Below, piece after piece: positions 15,537-46,251 of a DNA stretch of 64,000 nucleotides. The position numbers and the translations under genes are program-made. A model generated the notes under the pieces. The model made no database searches. It was not told the origin of the DNA and saw nothing but the letters and a program-made list of their open reading frames with translations. This DNA is from an uncultured Planctomycetota bacterium (lineage in GTDB: Bacteria > Planctomycetota > Phycisphaerae > SM23-33). The first letter of the stretch is position 1, and the number at the start of each line of letters is the position of its first letter. Location: positions 13,552 to 77,551 of the forward strand of contig CAITIS010000001.1 of the NCBI GenBank assembly GCA_903892515.1, given 5' to 3'.

Positions 15537-15697
15537 AAAAACAAGACTGGGCCACAGAGACGCAGAGGGCTCAGAGAAGACAAGATTTCAATGCGGCGCG
15601 TGTGCAACTGGTTGTACGCGCGCCGGATGGTTGTGTACCACGACAGTCCGTAGGCTGGGCCGAGGAATTCTTTCCGAGGCCCACCTTCGGCGTCCCG

Positions 15698-15741
15698 GCT
15701 TCCCGCTTCCCGATTCCCGCTTCCCGATTCCCGCTTCCCGT
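15698..15741. repeat. Heptamer tandem array (TTCCCGN)x6
   Basis: CTTCCCGCTTCCCGATTCCCGCTTCCCGATTCCCGCTTCCCG. Confidence 0.75.
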
Positions 15742-16243: not shown

Positions 16244-16337
16244 CGAACGAAACGCTCCTTTGCCGTGCACAACTGAACCAAATGTTGATTGTACCGCGCA
16301 GGCGCGGTAATCCTCTGCCATTCTTGAAAGGGCCGAC

Positions 16338-17798
16338 ATGCGGCTGACACCTCAGGGCGTGCGTTGCCTCAGCGAAAGCGAAATCCAGGCCATCGTCGAT
16401 ACGTCGCTGAACATCCTCGACGAGATCGGCATGATCATCGAGAGCCCGTTCATCTGCCAGCGCTTCGTCGAGGCCGGGGCCGCGTGGGACGGGCAAACCC
16501 GTCTGAAGTTCCCGCGCTCGCTCATGCGGCGGTACATCGAGTCGCAGCGGCGCGAGAATTTCCCCGCGCCCGTGCCGCGCGAACCGCACGTGGGCGGCAG
16601 CATCGGCAGCTACCCGATGCGGTACCTCGACCCCTACGACCGCACCATCAAGCTGCACACCGCCCGCAGCGTGGCCGACCTGACCCGCCTGGCCGACGCC
16701 GTGCCCAACATCGATGGCATCGGCTCGTGCGGCGTGCCGTCGGACATCTCGCCGCTGCTCCAGCCGCTGTGGATGCGGTTTATTTCCTGGCGGTACGCCG
16801 AGAAGCTCTCCAACTCCTACGTGCTGTGGGATCACCGGCTTTGCCCGCTGATCGCCGAGTTCGCCGAGACGGTCTCGGCCATGGAACCGCAGAACGGCGG
16901 CGTGAAGCGGTACTTCCGCGGCGAGAACTACATCATCACCCCGCTGCGGTATGCCCGCGAAGAGGCCCTGCAATTCGAGTGGTTCTACCAGCACGGCTAC
17001 CGGGTGACAGTGGGCAACTTGCCGTCCATCGGCGGCTCGGCGCCCAGCACGATGGCCGGCGCGGTGGCGCTGGGGTTGGCGGAGTCGCTGGTCATCAACT
17101 TCTGGCAACACGTGTTCTATGGCGACAAGGGCCTGTACGTGGCGTGTGCGATTCCGCCGCTGGACATGCGCACCGGCTGCATGCCCTACGGGAGGCCGGA
17201 GCAGACGCTGACGGCCCTGGCCATGTCGCAGATCGCCGATGCCATCGGCGCGCTGGATACCGGCAGCACCGGCCACGGCACGGCCGCCAAGGGCCCCAAC
17301 ATCGAGGCCGGGCTCAACAAGGGTTTTGGGGCCGGCATGCAACTGGCCCTGTTCGGCGACGTTGACTGGCACTTCGGCATCTTCAGCACCGACGAAATCT
17401 ACGACCCGCGGCTGATCCTGATCGAGAACGAGTTCGTGGACAGCCTGCGTCGCATCAGCCGGGGCTTTGAGGTGACGCCCGAGACGCTGGCGTACGACGT
17501 GATTCGCGAGGTCGGCGCCGGCGGGCAGTTCCTCTCGCACCCGCACACGCACGAGCACTTCCGCCAGGAACTGTGGCTGCCCGACTTGTTTAATGGCATG
17601 TATATGGAAGGCTGGATGGCCGCCGGCAGGCCGGAGATTTTAGAGCGGGCTCGGGACAAGGTGCTGGATATCCTGGCCAGCCACCACCCGCGCGGCATCA
17701 AGCCCGAGACGGAAGAAGCGTTGCTCTCGCTGATGGACAAGTACGCCGCCGAGCTGAACCTGACGGACTACGTCCGGCCAACAGATTTGCCAAAGTAG
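16338..17798 (+). CDS. MttB-superfamily (trimethylamine/glycine-betaine-type) corrinoid methyltransferase homolog, no in-frame amber codon
   Basis: 486 aa, the length and N-terminal pattern (LSESEIQAIVDTSLNILDEIGM) of the MttB family; uninterrupted ORF, so a non-pyrrolysine member. Confidence 0.55.
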   Translation: MRLTPQGVRCLSESEIQAIVDTSLNILDEIGMIIESPFICQRFVEAGAAWDGQTRLKFPRSLMRRYIESQRRENFPAPVPREPHVGGSIGSYPMRYLDPYDRTIKLHTARSVADLTRLADAVPNIDGIGSCGVPSDISPLLQPLWMRFISWRYAEKLSNSYVLWDHRLCPLIAEFAETVSAMEPQNGGVKRYFRGENYIITPLRYAREEALQFEWFYQHGYRVTVGNLPSIGGSAPSTMAGAVALGLAESLVINFWQHVFYGDKGLYVACAIPPLDMRTGCMPYGRPEQTLTALAMSQIADAIGALDTGSTGHGTAAKGPNIEAGLNKGFGAGMQLALFGDVDWHFGIFSTDEIYDPRLILIENEFVDSLRRISRGFEVTPETLAYDVIREVGAGGQFLSHPHTHEHFRQELWLPDLFNGMYMEGWMAAGRPEILERARDKVLDILASHHPRGIKPETEEALLSLMDKYAAELNLTDYVRPTDLPK

Positions 17799-17814
17799 AG
17801 TTGACCGCGCGGCC

Positions 17815-17849
17815 GGTTGGCCCCGTGGCAAAGCCGCCCTCGGCTGTGC
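17815..17849 (+). terminator. REP-like terminator hairpin, copy 2
   Basis: GGCCCCGTGGCAAAGCCGCCCTCGGCTGTGCG, 17 nt after the MttB stop. Confidence 0.55.
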
Positions 17850-17859
17850 GAACCAGCGT

Positions 17860-17912
17860 TTTCACGGGTCCGTCTTCACGGGTCCGTTTTCACGGGTCCG
17901 TTTTCACGGGTG
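17860..17912. repeat. 13-mer tandem array (TTCACGGGTCCGT)x4
   Basis: Direct tandem copies between convergent MttB and lon. Confidence 0.7.
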
Positions 17913-18091
17913 CCATAGGTTGACCCGCGGCTTCTTGCGGGTCTACCTATGCGGGACGTCGGACATAGGCAGCCCCGCCTTCGCCAGACGACGCGAAGAC
18001 GTGTCAGCCTATGGCACCCATTTCCAGCCTATGGCACCCAGTTCTGGTCGCAACGTCCGGCCTGTCACGCCATGTTGCTCGGCCAACTGGT

Positions 18092-20731
18092 TCACGCCTT
18101 GGCGTGAGTGCTCTTCCGGGCGGGCTTGCGAACCGATTTACGCGGCTTGGCCTTGGGCGATTTCGTTCCGGGCGACTTGGCCGCAGGCGCAGGAGACTTC
18201 GCCGCGACCGACTTGGCCACGGCCGACTTCGGCTTCGGCTTCGCCTTGGCCTTGCTGATCTGGGCCGGGACCTTGGGCATCAGGGCGACCTTCAGCACGT
18301 CGTCGATGGTGCGGGCAAAGATGAACTGCATCTCCTTCCGGACGTCGGGCGGAATGTCGCGAATGTTCTTCTTGTTGCGATAGGGCAGGATCACGCGTTT
18401 GATGCCCGCCTGTCGGGCCGCCAGGATCTTCTCCTTGATGCCGCCCACCGGCAGCACCAGGCCGCGCAGCGTGATCTCGCCCGTCATGGCCAGGTCGTGA
18501 TGCACCGGCCGATCCAGCAGCAGCGAACACAGCGCCGTGGCCATGGTCACGCCGGCGCTGGGGCCGTCCTTGGGCACCGCGCCGGCCGGCACGTGCACGT
18601 GAATATCGAAGTTGCTGAACTTGGCCGGATCCACGCCGAACTGCTCGGCCCGGCTCTTGATGAGAGACAGCGCCGCTTGCACCGACTCCTTCATCACGTC
18701 GCCGATCTGGCCGGTCAGCAGCAAATTGCCCTTGCCCGCAAAGGCAGTGGCTTCGACGAAGATGATCTCGCCGCCGGCCGGGGTGTACGCCAAGCCCGTG
18801 GCCACGCCCGGCACGCTGGTGCGCTGGGCCAGTTCGCTCTCATACTCAGCGGGCCCAAGGTAGTGGCCGATGTCCTTTTCCGTGATGATTCGCTTCTTCT
18901 TTTCGCCGATGGCCACGCGGGCGGCCACGGCCCTGCAGACGGCGCCCACGCGGCGTTCCAGTTCGCGCACGCCGGCCTCGCGGGTGTAGTCTCGCACGAT
19001 CCGCAGGAGCGCCTCGGGCTTCATCTCCAGCAGATCCTTGGTCAGCCCGTTTTCCTTGAGCTGTCGCACCAGCAGGTAGCGTTCGGCGATGCGCAGCTTG
19101 TCGTGCGTGGTGTAGCCGGGGATCTCGATGACCTCCATGCGGTCGCGCAGCGGCGGCGGCACCGTGCTCATGATATTGGCCGTGCCGATGAACAGCACCG
19201 AGGACAGGTCAAAGGGCACGTTTAGGTAGTGGTCCTGGAAACTGAAGTTCTGGGCCGGGTCCAGCACCTCCAGCAGCGCCGAAGTCGGGTCGCCGCGGAA
19301 GTCCATGCCCACCTTGTCCAGTTCGTCGAGCATGAAAACGGGGTTGCGGCTGCCGGCCTTGCGGATTTCCTGAATGATCCGGCCAGGCATGGCGCCGATG
19401 TACGTCCGCCGGTGTCCGCGCAGTTCGGCCTCGTCGCGCATGCCGCCCAGCGACATGCGAATGAATTTGCGTCCCAGCGCCCGGGCGATGGACTGCCCCA
19501 GCGAGGTCTTGCCCACGCCCGGCGGGCCCACAAAGCACAGCACCGGCCCGCGCGATTGCGGCGCCAGCTTCAGCACGGCCAGGTATTCCAGGATGCGCTT
19601 CTTGACCTTCTCCAGGTCGTAATGGTCCTCATTCAGCACCTTGCCGGCGCGCTGAATGTCCAGGTGGTCGGGCGTGAGCTTGCCCCAGGGCAACTCGACC
19701 ATCCAGTCGAGATACGTGCGGATAACGGTGTACTCGGGGCTGGCGGCGGGAATGCCTTCAAGCCGGTGGAGCTGGCGGACGCACTCGTCCTTGACGGCTT
19801 CGGCCATGCCCGCTTCAGTGATTTTCTTCTGCAGATCGGCGACCTCGGCCGCCTGGTCATCGACCTGGCCCAGCTCCTTCTGAATGGCCTTGAGCTGTTC
19901 GCGCAGATAGTACTCGCGCTGATCCTTGTTGATGTTGGCGCGGACCTGGTCCTGCAATTGGCCGGAGAGTTCGAGCACCTCCACCTGCCGCATGAGGTGG
20001 GTTTGCAGCAGTTCCATGCGGCGGAGCACGTCGTCCTGCTCCAGCAGCGACTGCTTGTCCGCCACCGGCAGGGGCAAATTGGCCGCCAGGAAATCCGCCA
20101 GCGCGCCGGGCTGCTCGATGTTGGAGATGACCATGGCGGCCTCGTCGGGCACGTTGGGCGAAAGCTGCACGATCCGCTGGGCCTTCTGACGAACGTCCAG
20201 CACCCGCGCTTCCAACTCGCGCGAATCGGAAAGACGGTCGGCCAGCGGGGTGATGCGGGCCTTGAGGTATGGTGTGGTCTGCGTGAATTCGTCGATGTGC
20301 ACGCGCAGCAAGCCGTGCACGATCATGGTCTGGTGCCCTTCCTCGTTGCGAAGCAGCTTGAGCACCACCGCGGCCGTGGCCACCTGGTACAGATCGGCCG
20401 GCGTGGGGTCCTCGACTTCGTTGTCGCGCTGCGTGACCAGCACGATGACCTTCTGCTCGGGCAGCACTTCGTCGATAAGTTTGCGCGACTTCTCCCGGCC
20501 GACCGTCAGCGGCATGACCGTGCCGGGGAAGACCACGGCGTTGCGGATGGCCATCACGGCGGCGATTTCGGGAATGGGCAGATGCGGCTCTTTGCCGGGC
20601 CCGGAGGGGTCCTCGTGCCGAATGATCGTATCGCGATCATCGGAGGTGTCGATCCGGGTCTTGGAGGCACCCTCGGTTGTCGTGGTATCGTCTGCCAATG
20701 TCGGTCCTTTGCCGTTTCGTGACTGACTCAT
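18092..20731 (-). CDS. lon: ATP-dependent Lon protease with Lys/Ala/Pro-rich histone-H1-like C-terminal tail
   Basis: Lon N-domain, AAA+ Walker A (GPPGVGKTS), protease domain with the catalytic Ser (PKDGPSAG); ~55-aa [12 protein letters not shown]... tail. Confidence 0.9.
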
Positions 20732-20780
20732 GCACCCAACTCAGCCACGGAAGTCACAGGGAGAAGCAAAACGCGAACTC

Positions 20781-20860
20781 GTTGATTCGTGAAGCGTTGA
20801 CTCGCCAAGCCGATATGGACATGGCGTCATCCTACGAATTCACGAATCACGGAATCTCGG
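20781..20860. promoter_or_regulatory. Inverted repeat TTGATTCGTGAA-N45-TTCACGAATCACGG upstream of lon
   Basis: Lies 50-130 bp upstream of the lon start (20731, minus strand); the CGTGAATCCGTT-type motif recurs at 26388-26468 and 50912-50948. Confidence 0.35.
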
Positions 20861-20908
20861 CCTTCTTGCGCTGCGCGATCGTTCTATGCGGTTGTCTTGC
20901 TGGTGAAA

Positions 20909-21394
20909 TCATTTTTTGGGCATCGTCACCCACAGGAAACCGCCGCGATAGCACGCCTGGATGGCCTCGGAGTTTATTTCCTGCGGCAGCTCCAGCACGC
21001 GATGGAACGGCCCGTGGTTAATCTCCATTACATGCAGGCGCATGTGAGTAGTCTTTTCACCCTTGCAGCGGCTCTTCTCCAACGGCGGCCGGGGGCTGCT
21101 GCGTTCGCCACGCAATACCAGCATCCGCTTCTGCACGTGCAGGTCGATGCTCTTGGCGTCCACGCCGGCCACGTCGGCCACGAGGTAGAACGCTTCGGGG
21201 TCTTCGTAGAGATTGACGGCCGGTCGCCAGGCATTGCCGGGATACTGCACGTAGTCCGTGCCCAGCACGTGCTCGATCCAACGACTCATCTGCTTGGCCA
21301 GGCCGGTGAAGCCTTCCTCGGCCATGGTGATCGGCAGCGCCCTGGACTCCGCATCCCTCGAAAGTTCGGCTTCCAACATGACGTGCTCTCCCAA
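20909..21394 (-). CDS. Hsp20/alpha-crystallin family small heat-shock protein
   Basis: Alpha-crystallin domain (PAVNLYEDPEAFYLVADVAGVD...LHVQKRMLVLRGER). Confidence 0.8.
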   Translation of the reverse strand: MGEHVMLEAELSRDAESRALPITMAEEGFTGLAKQMSRWIEHVLGTDYVQYPGNAWRPAVNLYEDPEAFYLVADVAGVDAKSIDLHVQKRMLVLRGERSSPRPPLEKSRCKGEKTTHMRLHVMEINHGPFHRVLELPQEINSEAIQACYRGGFLWVTMPKK

Positions 21395-21481
21395 TAACGT
21401 TGCACCGGTGGCCTGGCGCTCGACAATCGCGTCTCGCCACTGCGTCTAAGGATCAAGCCGTCCGCGATTCTCTCACCGCGG

Positions 21482-23044
21482 CTACTTCGGCGAGATCACG
21501 AAATACCGCTTGCCGCCGTTCTTGGGCAGCACCACGTGCAGACGAATGGCCTTGTCCTTGGCCTCGCTGACGGCCGCCAGAAACTCGCGGACGTTGGCAA
21601 CGGCCTTCTCGTTCACACGGTCGATCATCATGCCCGAGCGAAGCCCCTTGTCAAAGGCGTCGCTGTCATTATCGACATCCGTGATGACCACACCCTTGCT
21701 GGCAAGATCGTACCCGAATTGGTCGGCTATGTCTTTGGACAAGTCCTGAACTTGCAGGCCGTACTTCTTGCCCTGCGTCTGCTTTTCCGCGGCCGAGCCA
21801 CCTTGGGCCATATCCGCCGGCTGCTCGCCCACCTTGAGCGTTATCTCCATCTTCTGGCCGCCGCGCAGGATACCAAGCTTGACCTCGTGGCCGGGCGCGA
21901 CCTCGGCGATCTGGTTGCGCAGCTCGTTGGAGTTCAGCACGCTCTTGCCATCGACTTCCACGATGACATCGTCTTCCTTCAGCCCGGCCGCCTTGGCGGG
22001 ACTATCCGGCAGCACGTTGGTCACCACGGCGCCGCGGCTGATCGACAGGTGGAAACTCTCGGCCAGCGCCGGGGTGTTGTCCTGAATGGCCACGCCCAGG
22101 AAGCCGCGGACCACCTTGCCTGTCTCGATGAGCTGCTTCATTATGTTCTTGGCCATGTTCGACGGCACGGCCAGGCCGATGCCTTCGTTCACGCCCGTGC
22201 GCGAGACAATGGCCGAGGTCACGCCGACGATCTCGCCCTTCATGTTGACCAGCGGCCCGCCGCTGTTGCCGTGATTGACGGCCGCGTCGGTCTGTATGAA
22301 GCTCTCGTACGCCCCGCGCCCGGTGGTGCGTCCCTTGGCCGAAATGATGCCCATCGTGACGGTTTGTTCCAGGCCTTCAGGCGAGCCGATGGCCAGCACG
22401 AGGTCACCCACCTGCATATCATCGCTGTTGCCCAGCGGGGTGTCGATGAGCCCTTCGGAGTTCTTGATCTTGAGCACGGCCAGGTCGCTCTGGGGATCGC
22501 CCTTGACCCAATCGGTGGAGTAGCTCTTGCCATCGGCGGTGATGATCTTGACCTCGGTGGCGCCGCCCACGACGTGCCAGTTGGTCAGCACGATGCCGTT
22601 CTTGGCGTCCACGATGGTGCCGCTGCCCAGACCTCGCTCGACCGTCGGCGGCCGGCGCTGCGTGCGAGGCCGAGTGGGCGCCGGTGTCGGAGCAGGCGCC
22701 GGCGTGGCGTCTTCGTCCTGGTCATCCTGATCGGGACTCTGGAAATGCCGGAAGAAGTCTTCCAACTCAGGCGGCACCTGCGGCTGCTCGACGCGCTTCT
22801 CAACGCGGACCTCGACCACCGAAGGCCCCACGACTTTGACGATCTTACGGAAAAGCGGGCTCAGCGTGTCCTGGGCAGACATCGAGGCCAGTTCGTCGCG
22901 GTCCTGCTGGGTGGCTTTCTCGACCTTGGCGGCGCTCTCCACCACGACAGGTTTGCTGCTCTGCGCCGGCACGGCCAGAGCCAAAGAAAGAACCACGCCC
23001 ATGAGCAGACCAACGCCGACGGTGAGTTTGCGTGCGTACATCAT
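21482..23044 (-). CDS. HtrA/DegP/DegQ-family periplasmic serine protease with two PDZ domains
   Basis: Signal peptide; trypsin-like catalytic residues (TNWHVV, D, GNSGGPL); two PDZ segments. Confidence 0.85.
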   Translation of the reverse strand: MMYARKLTVGVGLLMGVVLSLALAVPAQSSKPVVVESAAKVEKATQQDRDELASMSAQDTLSPLFRKIVKVVGPSVVEVRVEKRVEQPQVPPELEDFFRHFQSPDQDDQDEDATPAPAPTPAPTRPRTQRRPPTVERGLGSGTIVDAKNGIVLTNWHVVGGATEVKIITADGKSYSTDWVKGDPQSDLAVLKIKNSEGLIDTPLGNSDDMQVGDLVLAIGSPEGLEQTVTMGIISAKGRTTGRGAYESFIQTDAAVNHGNSGGPLVNMKGEIVGVTSAIVSRTGVNEGIGLAVPSNMAKNIMKQLIETGKVVRGFLGVAIQDNTPALAESFHLSISRGAVVTNVLPDSPAKAAGLKEDDVIVEVDGKSVLNSNELRNQIAEVAPGHEVKLGILRGGQKMEITLKVGEQPADMAQGGSAAEKQTQGKKYGLQVQDLSKDIADQFGYDLASKGVVITDVDNDSDAFDKGLRSGMMIDRVNEKAVANVREFLAAVSEAKDKAIRLHVVLPKNGGKRYFVISPK

Positions 23045-23120
23045 GCTGCTATCTCCTTTATCGCCGATAACTTGGCAGGAACGACCCAGACAAAGTATAG
23101 GCCCAGCGTCCCGGCTGTCG

Positions 23121-23245
23121 CAATCGAGACATCGTCAATGAAATCCGCACAGACAATCCGCAGATTCCGATCCGCAGATTCCGCAGATTCCGCAGATTTC
23201 GCAGATGCAGGTCGGAATCGAGACACCTTTGACGAAATCCGCGCA
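23121..23245. repeat. 9-mer tandem array (CCGCAGATT)x5 flanked by a 30-bp imperfect direct repeat (AATCGAGACAYC...GAAATCCGCRCA)
   Basis: Lies between the htrA start and the YfhO-like stop. Confidence 0.7.
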
Positions 23246-23315
23246 ACCACAGCTTGCGGGGATGCAGGGGATACACGAGACCAGACAACCCAGCCGACAA
23301 ACTCCAAACCATCAA

Positions 23316-26300
23316 TCATCGATCCTGCGTATCCCTTGTATCCCTGCGAACCTTGGGCCACAAACCGACGGCTATCAAAGTCAGCAAGGCGGCCGCCTGC
23401 ACGTACACCAGGCCCACAACAACCGTTGAGGCCGCCAGCGGCTCGGGCGGCTGCGAGGCCACCAAGCCCAATAGATCGGCCTTGACGCCGGTTTTTCCTG
23501 AGACGAGCTTGGGCGAAGGCGCCGCCTGAGCCCAGAACTCACCCTCTGCCGGTGCGGCGGCGAGCACGTCGCGGCGAAGGTCGATCGCCTCATCCCACCG
23601 CAGCCTCTCCATCGCGGTGGCCGAATCGGGCTCGACGGTTACACGCTCGGGCCTCCAGTGCGGCCCCTGGACCCGCAAGTTTTCGTAGATGTGCACCGGC
23701 AGATCGTCGGAGTGGATGGCCGGCAGCCCGTCGGGCGTCAGGTCGTGATAGATGGCCGAGGGCCCCGCGTGGCCACTGGACGCCGTGGCCACGGCACCCG
23801 GCTGAGAAGCTGCGGCCCCGACCGACATGTCGTTCCCGCTTCCCGACTCCCGATTCCCGATTCCCGACTCCCGATTCCCGCTTCCCGATTCCAGATTCCC
23901 GCTTCCCGCCGGTATCTCCCGTAACTGGACGTTGCGAATCTCTACCGCCCCGCGACTGGTCGTGGCCAGCAGGAACAACCCCGCCTCTTTCGCGCCCATA
24001 AAGAGCTGCCCAACGTGCCGCCACGTCGGCGTAAGCTGCTCGGCGGACAGCCGGATTCGCGACTGGAACTCCCGCCACCAGGCTTGCCCCAGCCCTGGCC
24101 GCCAGCCGCCGATAAAGACATTGTCAGCCCCGTGCGGCGCGCGAATGTCCATATCGATCCGGTACAGGCCATCCTCCAGCGTCACTGGCCAGGTCTTCAC
24201 GTCGGCATTATTGGCAGCGCTGGCTTGGAGCGTGATCTCCCCTACCGCCGGCAGCAGGTTTGCCCCCGGCTGGGCCAGGGGCCACTGCGCCGACTCTATG
24301 ACCTGGCGATACACCGGGTCGGCCGCCAGGACGTAGCGGACGTCAAAGAGGCTCAGCAGCCGGTTGTCGCGGATGAGCCACTGCCAGAAGCAGTTCTCGC
24401 CCCAGGGCTCAAAGCCAAACATTCTGGCGTGTTCCAGCGGTTGCAGCGGGCCGTAGTAGGAAATGCTGGCGATGCCGAACAAGGCTGAGCAGTTGGGCAG
24501 CAGCAGTTCCGCCGGCCGATGATGGTAGTCGCGCGAAAGTCCCCACACACGGAACGGTTGGCCAGCGGCGTGCTGGGCCAGCCAGGCAGCGGCTGGGGAG
24601 ACCTCCGGGTCGATCCGCTTGTCCGGCGGCGGGACGTCGACGAACCGACAGAGGATAAACAGGTCCAGCAGCAACAGCGGCAGGAGAATCAGCAGGCGTC
24701 TGTCTGAACGGCCAGGCACACTAACTATGGGTGCCACACCTGCGGCGTTTGCAGGTGTGCTGTCACGCACGGCTGCAGACTCCGCAGCCGTGGCACCCGG
24801 CGATGTAGAATCTGGTTCTTTCGTAGCACAGCCGCCCTCGGCTGTGGTCTTTTGTTCTTTCGTAGCACAGCCGCCCTCGGCTGTGGTCTTTTCCGCGGGC
24901 GATACTCCCGTGGCCCGACCAAGCGCAATCACCGTCAGCGCCAGCAGCGCCACCGGCACGTAGAAGGCCGGGCTTTTCCATTCCAGCGCTTGCTGCACCG
25001 ACTGCGCCACCGAGTGCGGCACGTTCAGCACCGGCGCCATCGCTTCCAACCGGCCGGTGCGGGCGGCCATTAGCAGTCCCAGCGACAGCAGGCACATTAC
25101 CCCGGCCAGGAAGATGCAGACCTTGCTGAGCGTTAGTTTCCAGGCCTCGTCGCGGCGGATGAGCCACCAGTGCATGCCGATGGCCGAGAGCGCCGCCAAG
25201 GCCAGGTCGAGCGTCAGCACCATCCTGGCCGGGCAGCGAACCTTGCCCAGCACCGGCAGCCAGTACATCAGCCGGTACGTCGGCAGGTATCCGCCCAGCA
25301 TCCAGACGAACGCCCCGGCGCCCAGCCACACCCACAGCCGCACCAGGGGCCCCAGCGGACCGGCCTGCTGCTCTTGCCGCCGCCGATACAACGCCAGCAC
25401 GGCCGCTGCCGCCAGGATCAGCGTGATCAGCCCGACGTAGCCCAGCATCTCGCACTGGTGCCACGGCCCCCACCACTTTTGACTGAAGAAGTTGGGGTCG
25501 CGATTGCCCAGCAAGAACGGGAACAACGCCAGCACGGTTGAGAGCGGGAAGAAGGAGTTCTCGATGGCGGTGGAATACGCCAAGCCCGCGCGGAAGGTCG
25601 CTTGCATGCCCAGCATCGTGACATATATCTGGCTGGCCATAAGCAGGCCTGCCAGCACGCCAGCTGCCAGCGCCGCGGGGATCGCGAACTTCAAAGGCCT
25701 TCCACGCACGAGCAGGTACACGCCGATGGGCAGACTCATCTGGATCACCGTCGGCCAATGACCTGCCGCCAGGGCCAGCGCCATCGCCCCAGCCAGCACC
25801 GCCAGGCCACGACGGACGCCCGCGTGCCACTGCGCGCGCTGGTTCGGGTGCCACTGCTGCGGCGTGTGCAGCAGTGTGGTTACAGCCGCGACCGACTTTG
25901 GCCGCATCAGTTCGATGCCCAGCAGAGCCCACGGCAGCAGGCCGGCAGTCTGGATGACGCCCAGGTGCACGCGGTGGCCGACCATGAAGCCGCAGAACAT
26001 GAACACGATGGCGCCGAACGCCCCGGCCTCGTCACGCAGCCCCAGCCGGCGCAGGTACACGAACGCCCCCACGCCGGCCGTGCCAAAGGCCAGGAACAGG
26101 CACAGGCTGTACGCCAGTTTCGCGGGCAAGGCCACGAAGAGCCAGTTGGGCGGAAAGAACACGCTGGATTGCGGGTCGGCCATCAGCGACGTGCCGGTGG
26201 CCGAAAATGGGTTCCACAGTGGCAGGTGGCCTTGCCGCAGCGCATCGGCCGTCAGCACGCGCACGGGATAAAAGAAGACGACGTCATCCTCGCCGGCCGA

Positions 26301-26381
26301 CGTGGGATCGGTCCACAGCGGGTACAGCATTCCCGCCGGCAGCAGGACGAGCAACAGAATGGTTAGCCAAGGGCGTGGCAT
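23316..26381 (-). CDS. YfhO-family large polytopic membrane protein (GT-C-like) carrying in-frame copies of two genome repeat families
   Basis: About 14 N-terminal TM helices, a large extracytoplasmic C-domain and a terminal TM; internal repeats TTAEGGCATKEQK x2 and GSGNRES x4 are encoded by the REP and TTCCCGN repeats. Confidence 0.55.
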   Translation of the reverse strand: MPRPWLTILLLVLLPAGMLYPLWTDPTSAGEDDVVFFYPVRVLTADALRQGHLPLWNPFSATGTSLMADPQSSVFFPPNWLFVALPAKLAYSLCLFLAFGTAGVGAFVYLRRLGLRDEAGAFGAIVFMFCGFMVGHRVHLGVIQTAGLLPWALLGIELMRPKSVAAVTTLLHTPQQWHPNQRAQWHAGVRRGLAVLAGAMALALAAGHWPTVIQMSLPIGVYLLVRGRPLKFAIPAALAAGVLAGLLMASQIYVTMLGMQATFRAGLAYSTAIENSFFPLSTVLALFPFLLGNRDPNFFSQKWWGPWHQCEMLGYVGLITLILAAAAVLALYRRRQEQQAGPLGPLVRLWVWLGAGAFVWMLGGYLPTYRLMYWLPVLGKVRCPARMVLTLDLALAALSAIGMHWWLIRRDEAWKLTLSKVCIFLAGVMCLLSLGLLMAARTGRLEAMAPVLNVPHSVAQSVQQALEWKSPAFYVPVALLALTVIALGRATGVSPAEKTTAEGGCATKEQKTTAEGGCATKEPDSTSPGATAAESAAVRDSTPANAAGVAPIVSVPGRSDRRLLILLPLLLLDLFILCRFVDVPPPDKRIDPEVSPAAAWLAQHAAGQPFRVWGLSRDYHHRPAELLLPNCSALFGIASISYYGPLQPLEHARMFGFEPWGENCFWQWLIRDNRLLSLFDVRYVLAADPVYRQVIESAQWPLAQPGANLLPAVGEITLQASAANNADVKTWPVTLEDGLYRIDMDIRAPHGADNVFIGGWRPGLGQAWWREFQSRIRLSAEQLTPTWRHVGQLFMGAKEAGLFLLATTSRGAVEIRNVQLREIPAGSGNLESGSGNRESGIGNRESGSGNDMSVGAAASQPGAVATASSGHAGPSAIYHDLTPDGLPAIHSDDLPVHIYENLRVQGPHWRPERVTVEPDSATAMERLRWDEAIDLRRDVLAAAPAEGEFWAQAAPSPKLVSGKTGVKADLLGLVASQPPEPLAASTVVVGLVYVQAAALLTLIAVGLWPKVRRDTRDTQDR
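23832..23909. repeat. TTCCCGN heptamer array (about 11 units) inside the YfhO-like CDS, in frame (encodes GSGNRES repeats)
   Basis: Same repeat family as 15698-15741 and 28441-28516. Confidence 0.75.
24815..24893. repeat. Two tandem REP-like hairpin units (TTCTTTCGTAGCACAGCCGCCCTCGGCTGTGGTCTTTTG) inside the YfhO-like CDS, in frame
   Basis: Identical 40-mer units also occur at 46141-46215. Confidence 0.75.
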
Positions 26382-26387
26382 GGTGGT

Positions 26388-26468
26388 TCGTGAATCCGTT
26401 TACTCGTGAATTCGTTGATCCGTTAATTCGTTAATTCGTTAACTCGTGAATCCGTTGAATTCGCTCAT
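26388..26468. repeat. Degenerate tandem repeats of CGTGAATCCGTT / AATTCGTTA upstream of the YfhO-like gene
   Basis: GGTTCGTGAATCCGTTTACTCGTGAATTCGTTGATCCGTTAATTCGTTAATTCGTTAACTCGTGAATCCGTTGAATTCG. Confidence 0.6.
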
Positions 26469-26536
26469 CTGTCCGCTTCTTATCTTCTCCGTCTTCCTCT
26501 GCGTCTCTGCGGCCAAGGTCTTCTGCATCTTCGGTG

Positions 26537-27517
26537 CTATTTCCCCGCGATGGCCTTGAGGTTCGCCAGCGGCGTCTTCAGCGGGATGGCGCACTCCGGG
26601 CCGACCACGTCGATGCCCGCCGTCGCCGCGGCCTGGGCCATTGCCCGAATCTCCTGACTCGTGCCTTGCAGCAGGCGGTAATTGCTGATGCCGCCCATCA
26701 GGGCCATTCGCTCGCCGGCCAGTTTGCGGACCTCCGCGGGCGAGCCCGTCTTGGTGTCCCAATGGAAGCACCCCATGCCGGTCTGCTCGATCATGCCGAT
26801 GCGGTCGGAGGTATTGCCGCAGATGTGCAGCACCAGCGGGGCGGCAATCTCCCGCACCAGTTGGCTGTGCACCGGCAGCAGGAAGTCGCGATACGCGCCG
26901 GGGCTGCACAGGTCGCGCGTGGCGTGGTCGGCCAGCAGCAGGCAATCGGCCCCGGCGTCCAGTTGGGCCTTGGCAAAAGCCAGCGTCACCGGCAGCAGGC
27001 GAGAGAGGATCTCACGCGTGGCCGAGGAACTGTCGATGGTGCCCATGAGGAAGTTTTCCACGCCGAACAAATGATACGCCAGCGTCCAAGGCCCGAAGAC
27101 CTTGCCGCACACCGCGGCCGCTCCGGACAGCCGCTTTTTCAGCAGGCCAATCGCCTCCAGCGGCACACGACAGCCCGGCCGATGCAGCAGGTCCGGCGGA
27201 ATCACGATGTCCTCAGCCGAGCGGAAGATCGGAGAGCCGCTCTCGGGCATCTGCTCGCTCGTGCCCCAGTTGACATTGCAGCCAATGGCGGCCACCTCGT
27301 GACAGACCGAGAACAGCGGCATCACCACGTCCATGCCCAGCACGCTGTAGCCGGCGATGGCCAGGTCGGCCATCTGCTCAGGATCGAGGTGCGCCTGCGG
27401 AAAGTACGCGCCCGTCTCGTGCATGAGTTCCACGCAGGCAATGGACGTGCCCGTGCCGAAGACCGGCTGGCCGTCGCCCTTGCGACCGATGGCGTTGAGG
27501 AATCGTTTCTGGCTCAT
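26537..27517 (-). CDS. Uroporphyrinogen-decarboxylase-fold MtaA/CmuA-family methyltransferase
   Basis: UroD-like pattern (MSQKRFLNAIGRKGDGQPVFG...YSVLGMDVVMPLFSVCHEVAAIGCNVNWG); the upstream ORF-track extension to 27673 is encoded by a heptamer repeat and was rejected. Confidence 0.55.
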   Translation of the reverse strand: MSQKRFLNAIGRKGDGQPVFGTGTSIACVELMHETGAYFPQAHLDPEQMADLAIAGYSVLGMDVVMPLFSVCHEVAAIGCNVNWGTSEQMPESGSPIFRSAEDIVIPPDLLHRPGCRVPLEAIGLLKKRLSGAAAVCGKVFGPWTLAYHLFGVENFLMGTIDSSSATREILSRLLPVTLAFAKAQLDAGADCLLLADHATRDLCSPGAYRDFLLPVHSQLVREIAAPLVLHICGNTSDRIGMIEQTGMGCFHWDTKTGSPAEVRKLAGERMALMGGISNYRLLQGTSQEIRAMAQAAATAGIDVVGPECAIPLKTPLANLKAIAGK

Positions 27518-27538
27518 GGCGGAAAAGATAACACTTGG

Positions 27539-27565
27539 AGGGCGTAGGGCATAGGGCGTAGGGGC
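27539..27565. repeat. Heptamer array (GGGCGTA/GGGCATA)x3
   Basis: Immediately upstream of the MtaA-like start. Confidence 0.6.
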
Positions 27566-27688
27566 CGTGTGGGCACAGGAAAGCCGCAGACGCGCTTCCG
27601 CAAGAACAGACACTCGGCGATGCCAGGCAGCCAGATAAGCAGGCTGGATAATTTCCATTGACCCTCCGTTCACTCCAGACGTACAATT

Positions 27689-28090
27689 GTGCGCATGAAG
27701 TGCATGGTAGATACAAGCGCGTTCCTGGCGGTGGCCCTGGACGAACCGGAAAAGGCCTGGCTGGTCGAGGCGACGAAGGGGTGTGTACTGGCCGCCCCGG
27801 CAGTTCTGCCCTATGAAATCGGCAATGCTCTTTCCGCGATGGTGAAACGCAAGTCCATTCTGGCGTCTGAAGCCGCCGCCGTTTGGGACACGATCGCGCG
27901 GATTCCCATAGAATTAACGGACTTCGACGTCAAGGCGGCGTTATTGCTGGCCGCTCGGTGCGGTTTGTATGCGTATGACGCCTACTACCTCCAATGCGCC
28001 ATGGTCACGCGATGTCCGCTGCTTACGCTGGACCGAGGCATGAAACACACCGCCAGGGAATTGCACATCACGCTGCTGGAGCAAGCATGA
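27689..28090 (+). CDS. PIN-domain ribonuclease toxin (VapC-like)
   Basis: Conserved acidic residues (VDTS..., ...AYDAYYL); alternative start at 27704. Confidence 0.65.
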   Translation: MRMKCMVDTSAFLAVALDEPEKAWLVEATKGCVLAAPAVLPYEIGNALSAMVKRKSILASEAAAVWDTIARIPIELTDFDVKAALLLAARCGLYAYDAYYLQCAMVTRCPLLTLDRGMKHTARELHITLLEQA

Positions 28091-28341
28091 AAGTTTACAC
28101 CTATTCTCAAGCGCGACAGAATCTCTCGGAAGTACTGAATCGGGCCAGGTCGGAAGATGTGTTTGTCCGGCGACGCGGCGGAGAGGTCTTCCGCATCGAG
28201 CCCAAGAAACAGGAAGGTTCACCTCTGGAAGTTCCCGGAGTAAAGACCAAGGCCAGGACCGCTGACATCCTCAAGGCCCTGCGGGAAGTCCGAGCGAGGC
28301 AAGGAGAACGGCTAACCGCCCGGCGCCGATCCCGCGGATAA
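28087..28341 (+). CDS. Phd/YefM-like type II antitoxin, encoded downstream of the toxin
   Basis: MKVYTYSQARQNLSEVLNRA N-terminus typical of Phd/YefM; its start overlaps the VapC stop (ATGA). Confidence 0.45.
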   Translation: MKVYTYSQARQNLSEVLNRARSEDVFVRRRGGEVFRIEPKKQEGSPLEVPGVKTKARTADILKALREVRARQGERLTARRRSRG

Positions 28342-28440
28342 ACGGGGCCGGTGAAGTGGCCCGTTGCGATGCTTGAACAAGAAAGGCTGGCAGGTCAGGA
28401 GACCCGCCAGCCCTTTTGATTGAGGTAATCGCCGTCCTCC

Positions 28441-28516
28441 GGCTTCCCGATTCCCGCTTCCCGAATCCCGCTTCCGGCTTGCCCGAATCCCGATTCCCGT
28501 TTTCCCGATTCCCGGC
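28441..28516. repeat. TTCCCGN heptamer array
   Basis: GGCTTCCCGATTCCCGCTTCCCGAATCCCGCTTCCGGCTTGCCCGAATCCCGATTCCCGTTTTCCCGATTCCCGG. Confidence 0.7.
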
Positions 28517-28524
28517 TTCTCCCG

Positions 28525-29904
28525 CTACCGAATTTTCGCCTTGGGATGGTGCTTGATGGCATCGAGCCCTGCGGCCAGGTCCGCGTCGGGCAGCGAGTAG
28601 TCCGACAGCTTGCCCTGGAAGTACTTGTCGTAGCCCACCAGGTCCATCAGCCCGTGGCCAGACCAGTTGAACAGGATCACCTTTTCCTTGCCCTCTTCCT
28701 TGGCCTTCTTAGCTTCGTCGATGGCGCAGGCGATGGCGTGGCTGGTCTCGGGCGCGGGGATGAAGCCCTCGGTCCGCGCGAACAGCACGGCCGATTCGTA
28801 GCAGCGGAGCTGATGAACGGCTCGCGGCGTGCACAGCCCTTCTTCCACCGCGTGGCTGACCAGGGGAGCCATGCCGTGATACCGCAGCCCGCCGGCGTGG
28901 ATGGGCGGCGGCACGAAGCGATGCCCCAGCGAATGCATCGCCATCAGTGGAGTCATCTTGGCCACGTCGCCGTGATCGTAGCTGAAGGGCCCGCGCGTCA
29001 GCGTCGGGCAGCTCTCGGGCTCGACGGGGATGATGTCGATCTTGGCGCCGTTGATCTTGTCGGCTATGAACGGGAAGGAAATGCCGGCGAAGTTGCTGCC
29101 GCCGCCCACGCAGCCAATGACCACGTCCACCTTCTTCTCGCCGATCTTGGCCAACTGCTTCTTGGCCTCCAGCCCGATGATGGTCTGGTGCAGCAGCACG
29201 TGGTTGAGCACGCTGCCCAAGCTGTACCGCGTCGAGCCGGTGGCGTCGCTGACGGCGGCCTCGATGGCCTCGCTGATGGCGATGCCCAGCGAACCGGGCG
29301 TGTCGGGTTGCTCTTTCAATATCTGCCGGCCCGCCGCCGTTTCGGTCGACGGGCTGGGCGTGCACTTGGCGCCCCAGGTCTCCATCATCAGCCGGCGGAA
29401 GGGCTTTTGCTCGAAGCTGATGCGGACCATGTACACCTTGCACTCCAGGCCGATCAGCGCGCAGGCGAACGCCAAGGCCGAGCCCCACTGGCCCGCGCCT
29501 GTCTCGGTTGTCAGCCGCTTGATGCCGAATTGCTTGTTGTACCAGGCCTGCGGAATGGCCGTGTTGGGCTTGTGGCTGCCGGCCGGGCTGACGCCTTCGT
29601 GCTTGAAGTAGATGCGGGCCGGCGTGCCCAGGTACTCTTCCAGCCGGCGGGCGCGGTACAGCGGGCTGGGCCGCCACAGGTACAGCATCTTGAGCACTTC
29701 ATCGGGGATGTCGATCCAACGCTGGGTGGACATCTCCTGCTCGATGATGTTCATGGGAAAGACCGGCGCCAGCATCTCGGGCTTGACCGGCTGGCCGTCG
29801 GGCCCCAGTGGCGGCAGCGGCGCGTGCGGCAGGTCGGCGGCCAGGTTGTACCATTGGCGCGGAATGTCCTTTTCGTCAAGTTGAACCTTGGTGACGTCCA
29901 TCAC
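28525..29904 (-). CDS. TrpB2-type tryptophan synthase beta-like PLP enzyme
   Basis: HKPNTA PLP-lysine region; the long N-terminal extension typical of TrpB2. Confidence 0.75.
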
Positions 29905-29976
29905 GAACTTCTCCGATCAAGCCAGGCGAGGCCTTCGGTCCACAGGCCCGCAGCAGAAAGAAGGGCGAAAGACAGG

Positions 29977-30057
29977 GTGTAGGTCGTAGGGCGTAGGGCG
30001 TAGGGAAATACGCCAAACCGCCGCGTCTCTTCCCTACGCCCTATGCCCTACGCCCTT
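29977..30057. terminator. Long hairpin built from inverted GGGCGTA heptamer arrays (stem ~20 bp, loop ~25 nt)
   Basis: GTAGGTCGTAGGGCGTAGGGCGTAGGGAAATACGCCAAACCGCCGCGTCTCTTCCCTACGCCCTATGCCCTACGCCC, downstream of the sensor kinase stop. Confidence 0.55.
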
Positions 30058-30271
30058 CCTTCTGCTGGGGGCCCATGGCCATGCCTGTCATATATCGACT
30101 GGCTGAGGCATCAGGATACCAGAGAATCGGCGATCTGTGTGAAGCTGAGTTTCATCGGAAAACGCGCCGATGAATCGAGCGGACCCGCACGCCGGGTGCC
30201 GTGGCCGCGGAGTCCAGCGGCCACGTTCAAAGAGCGACATGCCCGCGACACACGAACAACACTCGTCCGCC

Positions 30272-32176
30272 CTACCGCTTTGGCGGCGGCAGCGGCGGGA
30301 TGACGACCGTCACGGTCGTGCCTTTGCCCAGCTCGCTTTGCAGGTCGATCGTGCCGGCCAGTTGCTCGCAGGCGTGCTTGACGATGGCCAGTCCCAGCCC
30401 CGTGCCGCGGATGCTGGTGTCGCCGCTGCGGGCGGCGTCGGCCTGGAAGAATCGCTCGAAGACGCGCGTCTGATCTTCCTTGCGGATGCCGCAGCCGGTG
30501 TCGCTGACGCGCATGACCAGCCGACCATCGTCGCGCAGGGCCAGGCTGGCCGACACGTGGCCGCCGGCGGGCGTGAACTTGATGGCATTGTCCAACAGGT
30601 TCTGCAGGATCAACTCCAGCAGCTTGCGGTCGGACTGGAACGCAACGGGCAACGTGGCCGGGCCGGGCTGGACCGCCCCGGCAGTAGTTGCTTGGGCGAC
30701 GCTGGCAGCGGTGGCCTGCCCAGTGTCGGCAGCAGCTGCGCCAGTGACCGCAGCGCCAGCCGGCGCTTCCACAGTCAGCGCCACGTTTCTTTCCTCGGCC
30801 TTGGGGCCGAAAATTCCCACCGCCCAGTTGCGGAATTTCTGAACGTCGATCTCCTCGGCCCGCAGCTTGATCTTGCCCGTCTCCACCAGGTGCAGATCGA
30901 GCAGGTCCTTGGTCATATTCTCCAGGCGGGTGACGTGGCGGTGCAGGATGCCGTGCACGCGCTGCGACATGGCCTCATCCATCGCGCCCATGTCCTCCAT
31001 ATTGTCCACAGCCGCCCGTAGCGTGGCCAGCGGCGTGCGCAACTCATGCGAGGCATTGGCGGCGAATTCGGCTTTCATGGCCGAGGCCCGCACCAGGTCC
31101 GTCACGTCGCGCAGCACAAGCAGCTCGGCGATGCCGGCGGTCGAATTCAGCGGGGCCACGTGAATGTCCAGCGTCCGCCGCAGGCCGCGAATGTCGGCCT
31201 CGGACTGGCGCTGCAAGGTCTGCTTCTGGGCGAAGACCTGGTTGGACAGGTCCACCACGTCGGGCACGCGCACTACGGAGGGCAGCGGCTTGCCGACGGC
31301 CTGGCTGGCGTCGGCGCCGAGCATGGCCCCGGCGGTGCTGTTCATGAGCACGACCCGGGCATTGGCGTCCAGCGCCACGATGCCCTCGCCGAGATTGGAA
31401 ATCACGGTCTGCAAATCGCCGCGCTGGGCGGCGATGGTCTGGATCTGGCTGGCCAGGCCGTCACGCATATCGTTGAGGGCCGCCGCCAGCCGCGACAGTT
31501 CCCGAAAGCCGGTAACGCGTGCCTTCTGCTCTAAACTGCCCGAGGCGATCTGCCGGGCCGTCAGCGTGATCTTGCGCAGCGGCAGGTACCAGAACAGGGC
31601 GATCACCGACGAAAACACGGCCGCCGAGATCAGGCCGATGATCCCGCCGGTCAGCAGCATGTGCCGCAGCAGGTCGCGGTCGGTGTGCAGCGCCGTCAGC
31701 GGCATGGCCAGGCGAACGGCCCCCACTACGCGACCATCGAGAACCACCGGATGGGCAAGGTAGCGAAATTCCTCATCGGCGGTTTCGCTCCGCCGTGTGG
31801 CCGAGCCGGGCCGACCGGCCAGGGCGTCGACCAACTCGGGCCGAGAGACCGTGGCGTGATTGTCCATCTGCCGGGCGTCGAAGAGATTGTCATACAGCAC
31901 TTGCCCGTCGGCTGCGATCACCGTCAGACGCAGCGGGCTGCCCGCCAGCACCGACCGGCAAAGCTTGTCCATGGCCGCGGGCGTGTTGGCCTGGGGCCAA
32001 GCCTGCCCAACCAAGGCCGTGCAGACGGAGGTCAACTCCTGCTGCCGAGCCTGGGATTCACGCTGGAAGAACCGGCTGAAAGCGGGGTAGGCAAAGCCCA
32101 GGGCCAAGCCCAGCATGAGCAGCACCAACAGCAGGCTGCCCAGGAACAGCCGAAGAAACAGGCTACGCCGTCTCAT
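30272..32176 (-). CDS. Sensor histidine kinase (TM-HAMP-PAS-HisKA-HATPase), PhoR-like
   Basis: H-box HELRTPLATL; HATPase motifs GTGLGLAIV; overlaps the RR gene by 14 nt. Confidence 0.8.
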   Translation of the reverse strand: MRRRSLFLRLFLGSLLLVLLMLGLALGFAYPAFSRFFQRESQARQQELTSVCTALVGQAWPQANTPAAMDKLCRSVLAGSPLRLTVIAADGQVLYDNLFDARQMDNHATVSRPELVDALAGRPGSATRRSETADEEFRYLAHPVVLDGRVVGAVRLAMPLTALHTDRDLLRHMLLTGGIIGLISAAVFSSVIALFWYLPLRKITLTARQIASGSLEQKARVTGFRELSRLAAALNDMRDGLASQIQTIAAQRGDLQTVISNLGEGIVALDANARVVLMNSTAGAMLGADASQAVGKPLPSVVRVPDVVDLSNQVFAQKQTLQRQSEADIRGLRRTLDIHVAPLNSTAGIAELLVLRDVTDLVRASAMKAEFAANASHELRTPLATLRAAVDNMEDMGAMDEAMSQRVHGILHRHVTRLENMTKDLLDLHLVETGKIKLRAEEIDVQKFRNWAVGIFGPKAEERNVALTVEAPAGAAVTGAAAADTGQATAASVAQATTAGAVQPGPATLPVAFQSDRKLLELILQNLLDNAIKFTPAGGHVSASLALRDDGRLVMRVSDTGCGIRKEDQTRVFERFFQADAARSGDTSIRGTGLGLAIVKHACEQLAGTIDLQSELGKGTTVTVVIPPLPPPKR

Positions 32177-46100: not shown

Positions 46101-46215
46101 GCTCGCCCCGTGGCACAGCCGCCCCCGGCTGTGAACTTTGCTTCTTTCGTAGCACAGCCGCCCTCGGCTGTGGTCTTTGCTTCTTTCGTAGCACAGCCGC
46201 CCTCGGCTGTGGACT
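46101..46215 (+). terminator. REP-like hairpin array (3 units), copy 4
   Basis: Units 2 and 3 are identical to the 40-mers at 24815-24893; the array lies ~45 nt after the zinc-ribbon gene stop. Confidence 0.6.
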
Positions 46216-46251
46216 TGGCGGCCCCGTCGACGTCTGCTCGCGCGACTCAGC

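Follow-up and report, generated by a model that had tools for sequence, protein, structure and literature searches.

Repeats of noncoding type in frame within three linkers of a conserved, probably GT-C-fold membrane protein gene of an uncultured planctomycete

Introduction

Repetitive extragenic palindromes (REPs) of the GTAG type, their paired forms (REPINs, REP doublets forming hairpins) and the associated REP-associated tyrosine transposases (RAYTs, or TnpA_REP) are the closest described relatives of the system reported here (Di Nocera et al. 2013, PMC3733652; Ton-Hoang/Corneloup et al., PMC8266576). The survey of GTAG REPs, which covers the Planctomycetes and the PVC (Planctomycetes-Verrucomicrobia-Chlamydiae) group as well as GTGG-headed variants, reports copies inside unrelated genes, over half of them dimers or groups encoding 20 to 30 amino acids (aa), with clusters encoding 43 to 82 aa, and these were judged unlikely to inactivate their host genes (PMC3733652). 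A second parallel is provided by the Rickettsia palindromic elements (RPEs), which occupy in-frame positions in numerous genes (Ogata et al. 2000, as summarized in PMC10969869 and PMC3733652). Here, we describe a membrane protein gene of an uncultured Planctomycetota bacterium that carries REP hairpins and a heptanucleotide array in frame, located in a 64,000-nucleotide (nt) stretch of contig CAITIS010000001.1 that was analyzed as a whole and is called the window below.

Mazel et al. are said to have described in 1990 heptanucleotide arrays in cyanobacteria, the short tandemly repeated repetitive (STRR) sequences, which are the nearest counterpart of the second repeat type. The likeness to RPEs, as far as the summaries describe these elements, is functional only: palindromes lie in frame in conserved, apparently functional genes, a peptide is added at permissive positions, and some genes are hit repeatedly. 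Element size and host speak against counting the present repeats among the RPEs, in that RPEs are Rickettsia-specific, about 100 to 150 bp long and of other sequence, whereas here GTAG-type REPs of 24 to 39 nt are found in a free-living planctomycete. With intragenic GTAG REPs and in-frame RPEs already known, the present case is a further example and not a new kind of system, and it reveals no new mechanism. A sequence-only reading of this locus, made by a model, had called such insertion unusual, which overstates the matter in view of published intragenic GTAG REPs encoding 20 to 82 aa (PMC3733652) and of the RPEs (PMC10969869). What is noteworthy beyond these precedents are three hits in one gene, the recurrence of repeats in orthologs, an exact REP core shared across phyla, and an excess of 7-nt arrays. 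The locus thereby offers a clean, well-controlled case in which noncoding repeat DNA appears to have turned into protein sequence, the added segments retaining intergenic composition and lying in disorder while the conserved enzyme is left intact, and it adds uncultured Planctomycetota to the groups in which intragenic GTAG REPs are documented.

Results and discussion

A conserved gene with three repeat-bearing insertions

We consider it likely that the gene carries tolerated in-frame repeat insertions in permissive linkers and is otherwise an intact, conserved gene of the glycosyltransferase C (GT-C) fold. Three poorly conserved inter-helix or inter-domain linkers would each have gained DNA from the ordinary noncoding repeats of the genome, namely REP hairpins with GTAG or GTGG heads (a tandem pair of 39-nt units, an inverted pair of REPIN type and a single additional hairpin) and a G-rich heptamer microsatellite. 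The net added lengths preserve the frame, and the segments would be translated as hydrophilic disordered linkers; as such linkers would leave the fold undisturbed, we take the segments to be tolerated rather than required. The features concerned are as follows, with columns referring to an alignment of the host protein and 24 homologs (A1, see below), pLDDT to the predicted local distance difference test of the structural model, and GC1/2/3 to the GC content at the three codon positions.

23316..26381, minus strand: host gene, encoding a polytopic membrane protein of 1021 aa (open reading frame [ORF], homologs, alignment, AlphaFold2 model, Foldseek and codon-position GC)
25812..25889, minus strand: insertion 0, aa ~165-190, ...AAVTTLLHTPQQWHPNQRAQWHAGVR (A1 columns 201-300; pLDDT 56 for block 161-170)
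24708..24905, minus strand: insertion 1, aa ~493-558 (A1 columns 695-765; pLDDT <50 at 497-558; GC1/2/3 0.65/0.70/0.50)
23766..23912, minus strand: insertion 2, aa ~824-872 (A1 columns ~1185-1245; pLDDT <50 at 827-871; GC1/2/3 0.65/0.69/0.73)

A homology search with the host protein returned 270 proteins, the best of which, after the self-match, are 36 to 54% identical to it. The best 120 of these measure 603 to 1035 aa (3 marked partial), and all homologs with a named source come from Planctomycetota/Phycisphaerae metagenome-assembled genomes (MAGs). In A1 (25 sequences; the homologs 39 to 49% identical and 841 to 1035 aa long), each homolog is a single ORF aligning on either side of each insertion, and by this comparison the host gene and its homologs are one conserved gene. 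An HtrA-like gene lies downstream in both ortholog loci that were fetched (L120 and L121), and this common neighbor supports orthology and the single-gene structure. The sequence-only reading had reported two repeat families in frame in the 1021-aa ORF, and tandem arrays found by Tandem Repeats Finder (TRF) at the same positions confirm this; alignment to orthologs, which it had proposed as a check, likewise bears it out, both segments being missing from homologs and the orthologs being unsplit. We reject a split gene, the orthologs being single ORFs.

Placing the protein required a fold search, because a profile search of PDB sequences with A1 returned nothing meaningful. The host protein matches no Pfam family at threshold (sole match DUF6044, E = 0.35), does not match YfhO (PF09586) even at E <= 1, and matches no NCBIfam model, while a Pfam scan of the 25 A1 members gives weak matches to PTPS_related (6), DUF6044 (5), YfhO (4, best E = 2.9e-4) and DUF2079 (1), as well as to CBM_4_9. 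An AlphaFold2 model built on A1 (mean pLDDT 76.8, predicted TM-score 0.82) comprises a GT-C-fold N-terminal core, a periplasmic beta-sandwich domain resembling carbohydrate-binding modules (CBMs) and a C-terminal transmembrane (TM) anchor. Foldseek against the PDB retrieves AftD (5.6e-5), ArnT (8.6e-5), EmbA-EmbB (8.3e-4) and Pmt1 (2.4e-2), with CBM16, CBM4 and CBM22 modules matching the beta-sandwich. Like the GT-C enzymes (ArnT, AftD, EmbA/B/C; YfhO), the host protein thus combines a polytopic core similar to that of solved structures, an acidic motif in the first extracytoplasmic loop (E31-D32-D33, invariant in A1 right after the first TM helix), and a large extracytoplasmic C-terminal domain with a CBM-like beta-sandwich. 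Unlike them, it belongs to an uncharacterized family that, among named matches, is seemingly confined to Planctomycetota/Phycisphaerae, and as the TM-scores are modest (0.25 to 0.5) the GT-C placement holds at the level of the fold only. In our reading, the product is an intact GT-C-fold membrane protein, probably a lipid-linked-sugar glycosyltransferase with a periplasmic carbohydrate-binding-like domain. The earlier label of a YfhO-type protein is therefore right loosely, at the level of the GT-C fold, and does not stand as a family assignment.

The translation contains ...PAGSGNLESGSGNRESGIGNRESGSGND... and ...EKTTAEGGCATKEQKTTAEGGCATKEPD... at the repeat arrays. Insertion 1 is a disordered loop of about 60 to 66 aa with the REP units inside, between a TM helix ending at ~491 and the next at 563-580, at a site where nearly all homologs have only 5 to 8 residues (approximately R-PxRRA). 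Insertion 2 holds the heptamer array and forms a disordered linker from the CBM-like sandwich (716-823) to the last small beta domain; with ~52 aa in the host, it stands in place of a ~20-aa segment of the homologs (SSWxxPINLGGRLxPGE). Long stretches with pLDDT <50 are found just at 497-558 and 827-871, the only others being short (954-962 and 978-984). Insertion 0 was overlooked by the sequence-only reading, which had recognized two repeat segments; it contains a GTGC-headed hairpin, GTGC-CACTGCTGC-N7-GCAGCAGTG, at 25848-25876 (plus strand). All three insertions lie at boundaries between helices or between domains. Helix 563-580 and the last helix, the latter trailed by a K/R-rich tail, bracket the C-terminal domain (582-986), and because this bracketed domain resembles the periplasmic domains of GT-C enzymes, the REP-bearing loop would be cytoplasmic according to the model, contrary to the extracytoplasmic position first assigned to it.

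Coding signature and reproducibility

Gene-wide GC1/2/3 of the host ORF is 0.67/0.50/0.81. The conserved parts keep this signature in the same frame (aa 1-492, 0.67/0.48/0.86; aa 559-823, 0.68/0.46/0.81; aa 873-1021, 0.70/0.49/0.80), and the values of insertions 1 and 2 are not coding-like. Judged by composition, this loss of the GC3 signature in the insertions is the pattern expected of recently acquired noncoding DNA in a live gene. The proposal that the repeats are tolerated as flexible linkers is supported in the same way: they are absent from homologs, are modeled with pLDDT <50 and lack the GC3 signature, and their other copies in the window are intergenic.

Downstream of the heptamers, Y878, Y899, N901 and E925 are invariant in A1, and a C-terminal TM helix is predicted to be present. 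These residues and the helix, together with the coding signature of aa 873-1021, lead us to reject the suggestion that the C-terminal part is pseudogenized. The host protein keeps 174 of the 195 columns (89%) conserved in at least 22 of the 24 homologs, compared with 91 to 99% in other members; it is the most divergent member of A1, yet by this measure does not appear decayed.

Repeats are classic sites of misassembly, GC-rich genomes have long spurious ORFs (many appear in the ORF list of the window), and the host protein is the most divergent of its alignment, all of which could suggest an assembly collapse or chimera, or a decaying gene with an open frame by chance. We regard this as extremely unlikely. 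An independent ENA assembly (L001) covers window positions 13316-32871 (19.6 kb) at 99.95% identity, the differences being two single-nucleotide polymorphisms (15383 and 15406) and a ragged contig end, with none in any array, and the identical 1021-aa protein is found on contigs of at least three ENA assemblies. In addition, three conserved blocks share one frame with GC3 of 0.80 to 0.86 and conserved residues up to E925, and full-length orthologs share the architecture. We reject an assembly artifact on the strength of the independent assembly, identical through all arrays, and the continuity that had been questioned at the outset is thus not a sequencing or assembly error. For annotation, this means that an ORF carrying such repeats should be neither split nor marked as a pseudogene, and that protein length can be inflated by low-complexity linkers of repeat origin.

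The REP units of the host gene and of the window

24815..24892, plus strand (antisense to the host gene): pair of exact REP units, 39 nt each (TRF, mismatch search, hairpin search)
24731..24796, with 24731-24759 on the plus and 24768-24796 on the minus strand: inverted pair of REP-like hairpins with GTGC head and CACNNCTGC-N7-GCAGNNGTG body, forming the remainder of insertion 1
46109..46216, plus strand: intergenic sister array, 2.8 copies of the 39-nt REP unit, between convergent genes (TRF and REP searches)

TRF reports the intragenic units at 24815-24892 with period 39, 2.0 copies and 100% matches. Each consists of a GTAG head followed by the hairpin CACAGCCG-CCCT-CGGCTGTG, with a perfect 8-bp stem and a 4-nt loop (head and hairpin at 24823-24846 and 24862-24885), and is translated in the host frame as TTAEGGCATKEQK / TTAEGGCATKEPD. 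The sequence-only reading had taken the unit as 40 nt and invoked compensating context to keep the frame; the unit is really 39 nt, or 13 codons, and for that reason no compensation is needed.

A search of the window for the 39-mer with up to 3 mismatches gave 3 matches against 0 expected, and a search for the GTRG head plus hairpin gave 15 matches (a palindrome, counted on both strands) against 0.08 expected. In all, 9 REP copies occur at 6 loci in the 64 kb, with GTAG heads at 24823, 24862, 46149 and 46188 and GTGG heads at 7871, 17825, 40835, 46110 and 55134; one intragenic unit matches the intergenic unit 46141-46179 at 37 of 39 positions. Judged by a rough codon-position-GC gene map and by gene calls on an identical public contig, the five other loci each lie ~10 to 70 nt beyond the 3' end of a gene and have their heads oriented like that gene, and the only intragenic copies of the window are those in the host gene. 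GTAG-type REPs are defined by a short (20 to 40 nt) imperfect palindrome, a GTAG/GTRG head and many dispersed, mostly extragenic copies downstream of ORFs, along with inverted doublets and a RAYT gene, these last two being seen with this element in other genomes. The 39-mer is, on its sequence features, best regarded as a bona fide member of that type.

With the described GTAG REPs and REPINs, the element shares its 24-nt size, GT(A/G)G head and 8-bp stem, its multiple copies mostly just 3' of genes (tandem here, in inverted doublets in other genomes, where a Y1_Tnp gene stands beside the REP), and the presence of copies within ORFs encoding tens of aa, as in Opitutus terrae, Thauera and others. 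It differs in that the window copies with a GTAG head are direct tandem 39-nt units and not inverted doublets, the only inverted pair being the GTGC-headed one at 24731/24768; in that no RAYT gene was found within the 64-kb window (tblastn); and in that an identical 20-mer occurs in several phyla, REP families usually being narrower. The assignment is made by features, at the level of the GTAG type. An Rfam search (E <= 10) of 22800-26600 found no relevant family and no model for the REP, the sole matches, to a snoRNA and to part of a group II intron, being due to chance, and a literature search for the REP 20-mer in either orientation found no paper. As to their arrival, the REP hairpins might have reached the linkers by RAYT-mediated mobilization or by recombination with arrays such as that at 46109.

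Insertion 1 consists nearly wholly of four hairpins. For the inverted GTGC pair among them, folding predicts a single long hairpin of REPIN type, and the predicted fold of the 206-nt insert reaches -90.9 kcal/mol (z = -3.9 against shuffles). In the three GTGC-headed hairpins, the two variable stem positions are complementary in each (AC/GT, GG/CC, TG/CA), meaning that the changes are compensatory. No further GTGC-headed hairpin was found in the rest of the window, nor in any of 120 loci taken from other genomes; this hairpin type may derive from a second REP family of the source genome, may be specific to this genome or gene, or may reflect duplication within the gene.

The heptamer array and its relatives

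23833..23908, minus strand: heptamer array in the host gene, TTCCCGN, 10.9 units (TRF, pattern count, unit and frame check)
15693..15740, minus strand: intergenic heptamer array of the same family, directly 3' of a minus-strand gene ending at 15743
28438..28519, minus strand: intergenic heptamer array of the same family, directly 3' of a minus-strand PALP gene (stop ~28526)
6924-6965, 8472-8505, 15497-15536, 15693-15740, 27539-27563, 28438-28519, 29974-30005 and 30032-30056: period-7 arrays of the window

At period 7, TRF describes the coding array (23833-23908) as 10.9 copies with 85% matches and no more than two adjacent units identical; period 21 scores higher, with 3.6 copies and 92% matches. 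The sense strand carries the unit as (GGGAAKC)n, which is read as GSGNLES GSGNRES GIGNRES GSGN. A search for TTCCCGNTTCCCG with up to 1 mismatch gave 20 matches against 0.47 expected, at 15700-15740, 23833-23908 and 28444-28514. The heptamers would have arrived or expanded by replication slippage, with only in-frame 21-nt steps surviving; the 21-nt super-period is itself weak (lag-3 permutation p = 0.054) and suggestive at most.

A unit of 7 nt is not a multiple of 3, and in simulation the gain or loss of 1 or 2 units yields products of 878 to 932 aa, whereas 3 units keep the frame. The array could in this way act as a phase-variation (contingency) switch that removes the last ~150 residues including the C-terminal membrane anchor, and phase variation of Haemophilus HMW1A is indeed driven by heptanucleotide simple sequence repeats, which in that case lie in the promoter region (PMC8262952). 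We find this very unlikely for the present array, which is imperfect in the manner described above, does not differ in copy number between the window and the independent assembly, and is part of an identical protein in at least three ENA assemblies, although these are nearly clonal consensus sequences and one independent assembly with DNA is a weak test of copy-number polymorphism. The TTCCCGN family is otherwise intergenic, heptamer arrays are a general feature of the window, and the 21-nt super-period suggests that in-frame changes are the ones retained. Comparison of unit numbers between strains, an idea of the sequence-only reading, could be followed as far as this one assembly, which shows no variation in any array; a metagenome scan for close relatives returned six distant loci only (23 to 52% identity). 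Relative to known heptanucleotide microsatellites (STRR; contingency loci, PMC8262952), the likeness is in tandem 7-nt units, many and mostly intergenic arrays per genome and, in coding DNA, a frameshift switch that is possible in principle; the difference is in the GGGAAKC (G3N4) unit, the planctomycete host, the imperfect array and the constant length between assemblies.

Period-7 arrays account for 9 of the 14 arrays of the window (period 4 to 12, at least 3.5 copies). The REP-bearing loci of several phyla (833 kb) show the same bias, with 57 of 93 arrays, hexamers numbering 3, octamers 11 and nonamers 17. This dominance resembles the cyanobacterial STRR heptamers, and a literature search for heptanucleotide tandem repeats in Planctomycetes found no paper. 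G3N4 heptamer arrays at 8471-8502 (minus), 15499-15536 (plus), 15694-15739 (minus), 28446-28523 (minus) and 30032-30055 (minus), themselves canonical G-quadruplex motifs, lie directly 3' of stop codons and are G-rich on the sense strand of the upstream gene, and may be 3'-end elements acting in termination or mRNA stability. A canonical G-quadruplex pattern (at least 4 G3 tracts, loops of 1 to 7 nt) is matched on the sense (minus) strand of the coding array at 23835-23886, giving a candidate motif by regular expression; the window has 12 such motifs, of which 8 overlap arrays that TRF reports at period 7.

Recurrence in orthologs and the case for selection

Repeats are also found inside orthologous genes. 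P0092 (L121) carries a heptamer array (ATTGCCG x4.9), a 15-mer (QWHPA) and a 33-nt REP-like unit (TACACAGCCTGGAAAGGCTGTGCTACCAACTGC x2.9), and P0111 (L120) carries GAATGGG x5 within a 96-nt duplication, in both cases at loops other than those of the host protein. P0069 and P0115 contain tandem peptide repeats too, and such repeats are present in only ~4 to 5% of 120 homologs.

These independent acquisitions in the orthologs' own loops, the position of all three insertions at domain or helix boundaries, the stability of the insert relative to shuffles, the compensatory stem changes and the G-quadruplex pattern of the sense strand could together indicate that nucleic-acid structures have been selected. 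REP hairpins or a G3N4 quadruplex in the mRNA or nontemplate strand would then pause translation or transcription or direct mRNA processing, coordinating the membrane insertion of successive domains; alternatively, the longer linkers would be adaptive. We hold this to be unlikely. Domain boundaries are also the sole places that tolerate insertions, compensatory stems are expected in any REP family anywhere, about 95% of the 120 orthologs lack tandem peptide repeats and nothing is therefore conserved at the family level, and the orientation of intragenic REPs relative to the host gene is mixed in other genomes.

Several points nevertheless weigh against simple tolerated insertion. The three repeat-bearing insertions in one gene exceed the expectation of random scatter, all three GTGC-headed hairpins of the window are within the host gene, and repeats recur in orthologs; this clustering and recurrence leave room for gene-specific targeting or selection, where tolerated insertion would presume selective neutrality. 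The retention of 89% of conserved columns is compatible with somewhat relaxed constraint. The insertions are undatable, as no close relative was found (best homologs 36 to 54% identical), and insertion here is not formally separable from deletion in all others, even if composition and repeat identity in the sequence strongly favor insertion. That translation runs through the repeat segments is something we infer.

The REP core in other genomes

Headed by TGTRG, the exact 20-nt core of the REP, CACAGCCGCCCTCGGCTGTG, occurs at more than 112 loci of GTDB species genomes among the matches listed. The 833 kb of REP-bearing loci from other genomes (L002-L113, e.g., L039, L077, L052 and L080) belong mostly to Planctomycetota and also to Chloroflexota, Terriglobia/Acidobacteriota, Verrucomicrobiota, Hydrogenedentota, Sumerlaeota, a deltaproteobacterium, an actinomycete MAG and others, and include contigs of megabase size. 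The 5' flanks of 123 oriented copies have the consensus aTGTRG, and inverted doublets are frequent (TGTGG-hairpin-N10-20-hairpin-CCACA, REPIN-like; e.g., L021, L028, L057, L087, L090 and L095). Clustering of the ORFs yielded a family matching Pfam Y1_Tnp (PF01797, IS200-like/RAYT) at 24.5 bits against a cutoff of 23. Its members adjoin REPs or sit between them (L004 594-1249; L097 ~2773-3393; L080 ~700-1250; L052 ~140-520) and show the HUH motif PDHVHLV and the motif YICANPVRA. The RAYT-like ORF of L097 has its own C terminus (...TAEGGC...) encoded by a REP hairpin. The breadth of one core across phyla, unusual for a single REP sequence, suggests horizontal spread of a REP/RAYT system.

Elsewhere, too, the element seems to enter genes: 10 of 124 copies (~8%, among the matches listed) are flanked on each side by coding signature within an ORF and are seemingly intragenic. 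Eight REP-spanning ORFs were compared with Pfam, and six have domains fitting genuine genes (a CarB-like carbamoyl-phosphate synthase large chain, GH43, LplA/B, a cytochrome c assembly protein, an aminotransferase and a TPR/FG-GAP protein); of the remaining two, one has a partial D-ala-D-ala ligase C-terminal domain and one has no match. The same exact core thus appears to be translated in well-known gene families such as CarB-like, GH43 and LplA/B. Those placed by Pfam include the following.

L110 2278-5919, minus strand: in-frame REP in a CarB-like gene
L012 3725-5935, plus strand: in-frame REP in a GH43 gene, in the linker between catalytic and C-terminal domains
L108 640-4377, plus strand: three REP copies in a TPR/FG-GAP gene
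L023 3470-4366, minus strand: in-frame REP in an LplA/B gene

A bolder reading, which we think improbable, would make the orthologs of the GT-C gene a preferred sink for repeats, with the boundary hairpins or G-quadruplex selected (e.g., for pausing translation while the protein enters the membrane stepwise) or with the heptamer array serving as a switch that removes the C-terminal anchor; separately, the cross-phylum REP core and the excess of 7-nt arrays would reflect a horizontally spreading REP/RAYT system that seeds heptamer arrays.

Other repeats in the window

The TAG stop of gene 13598-15499 doubles as the first unit of a TAGGGCG array. Between a histidine-kinase and a PALP gene, the arrays AGGGCGT (29974-30005) and CCCTACG (30032-30056) are complementary and 26 nt apart, and these facing arrays could form a long hairpin together. 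A URO-D-like ORF (26537-27673, minus strand, 373 aa in public calls) probably starts at the internal MSQKRFLN (M53, ~nt 27517), and for this reason the AGGGCGT array at 27539-27563 would be 5' intergenic and not coding. A 9-nt array (TCCGCAGAT x4) with an overlapping 14-nt repeat (23156-23206) lies in the spacer that separates the GT-C stop codon from the HtrA-like start. Finally, we observe a further repeat family with CACAAAGRGCACAAAG / CTTTGTGCC motifs at 39360-39498, 39971-39995 and 51126-51178, which includes 2.7 copies of a 46-nt unit where gene 36316-39378 has its 3' end.

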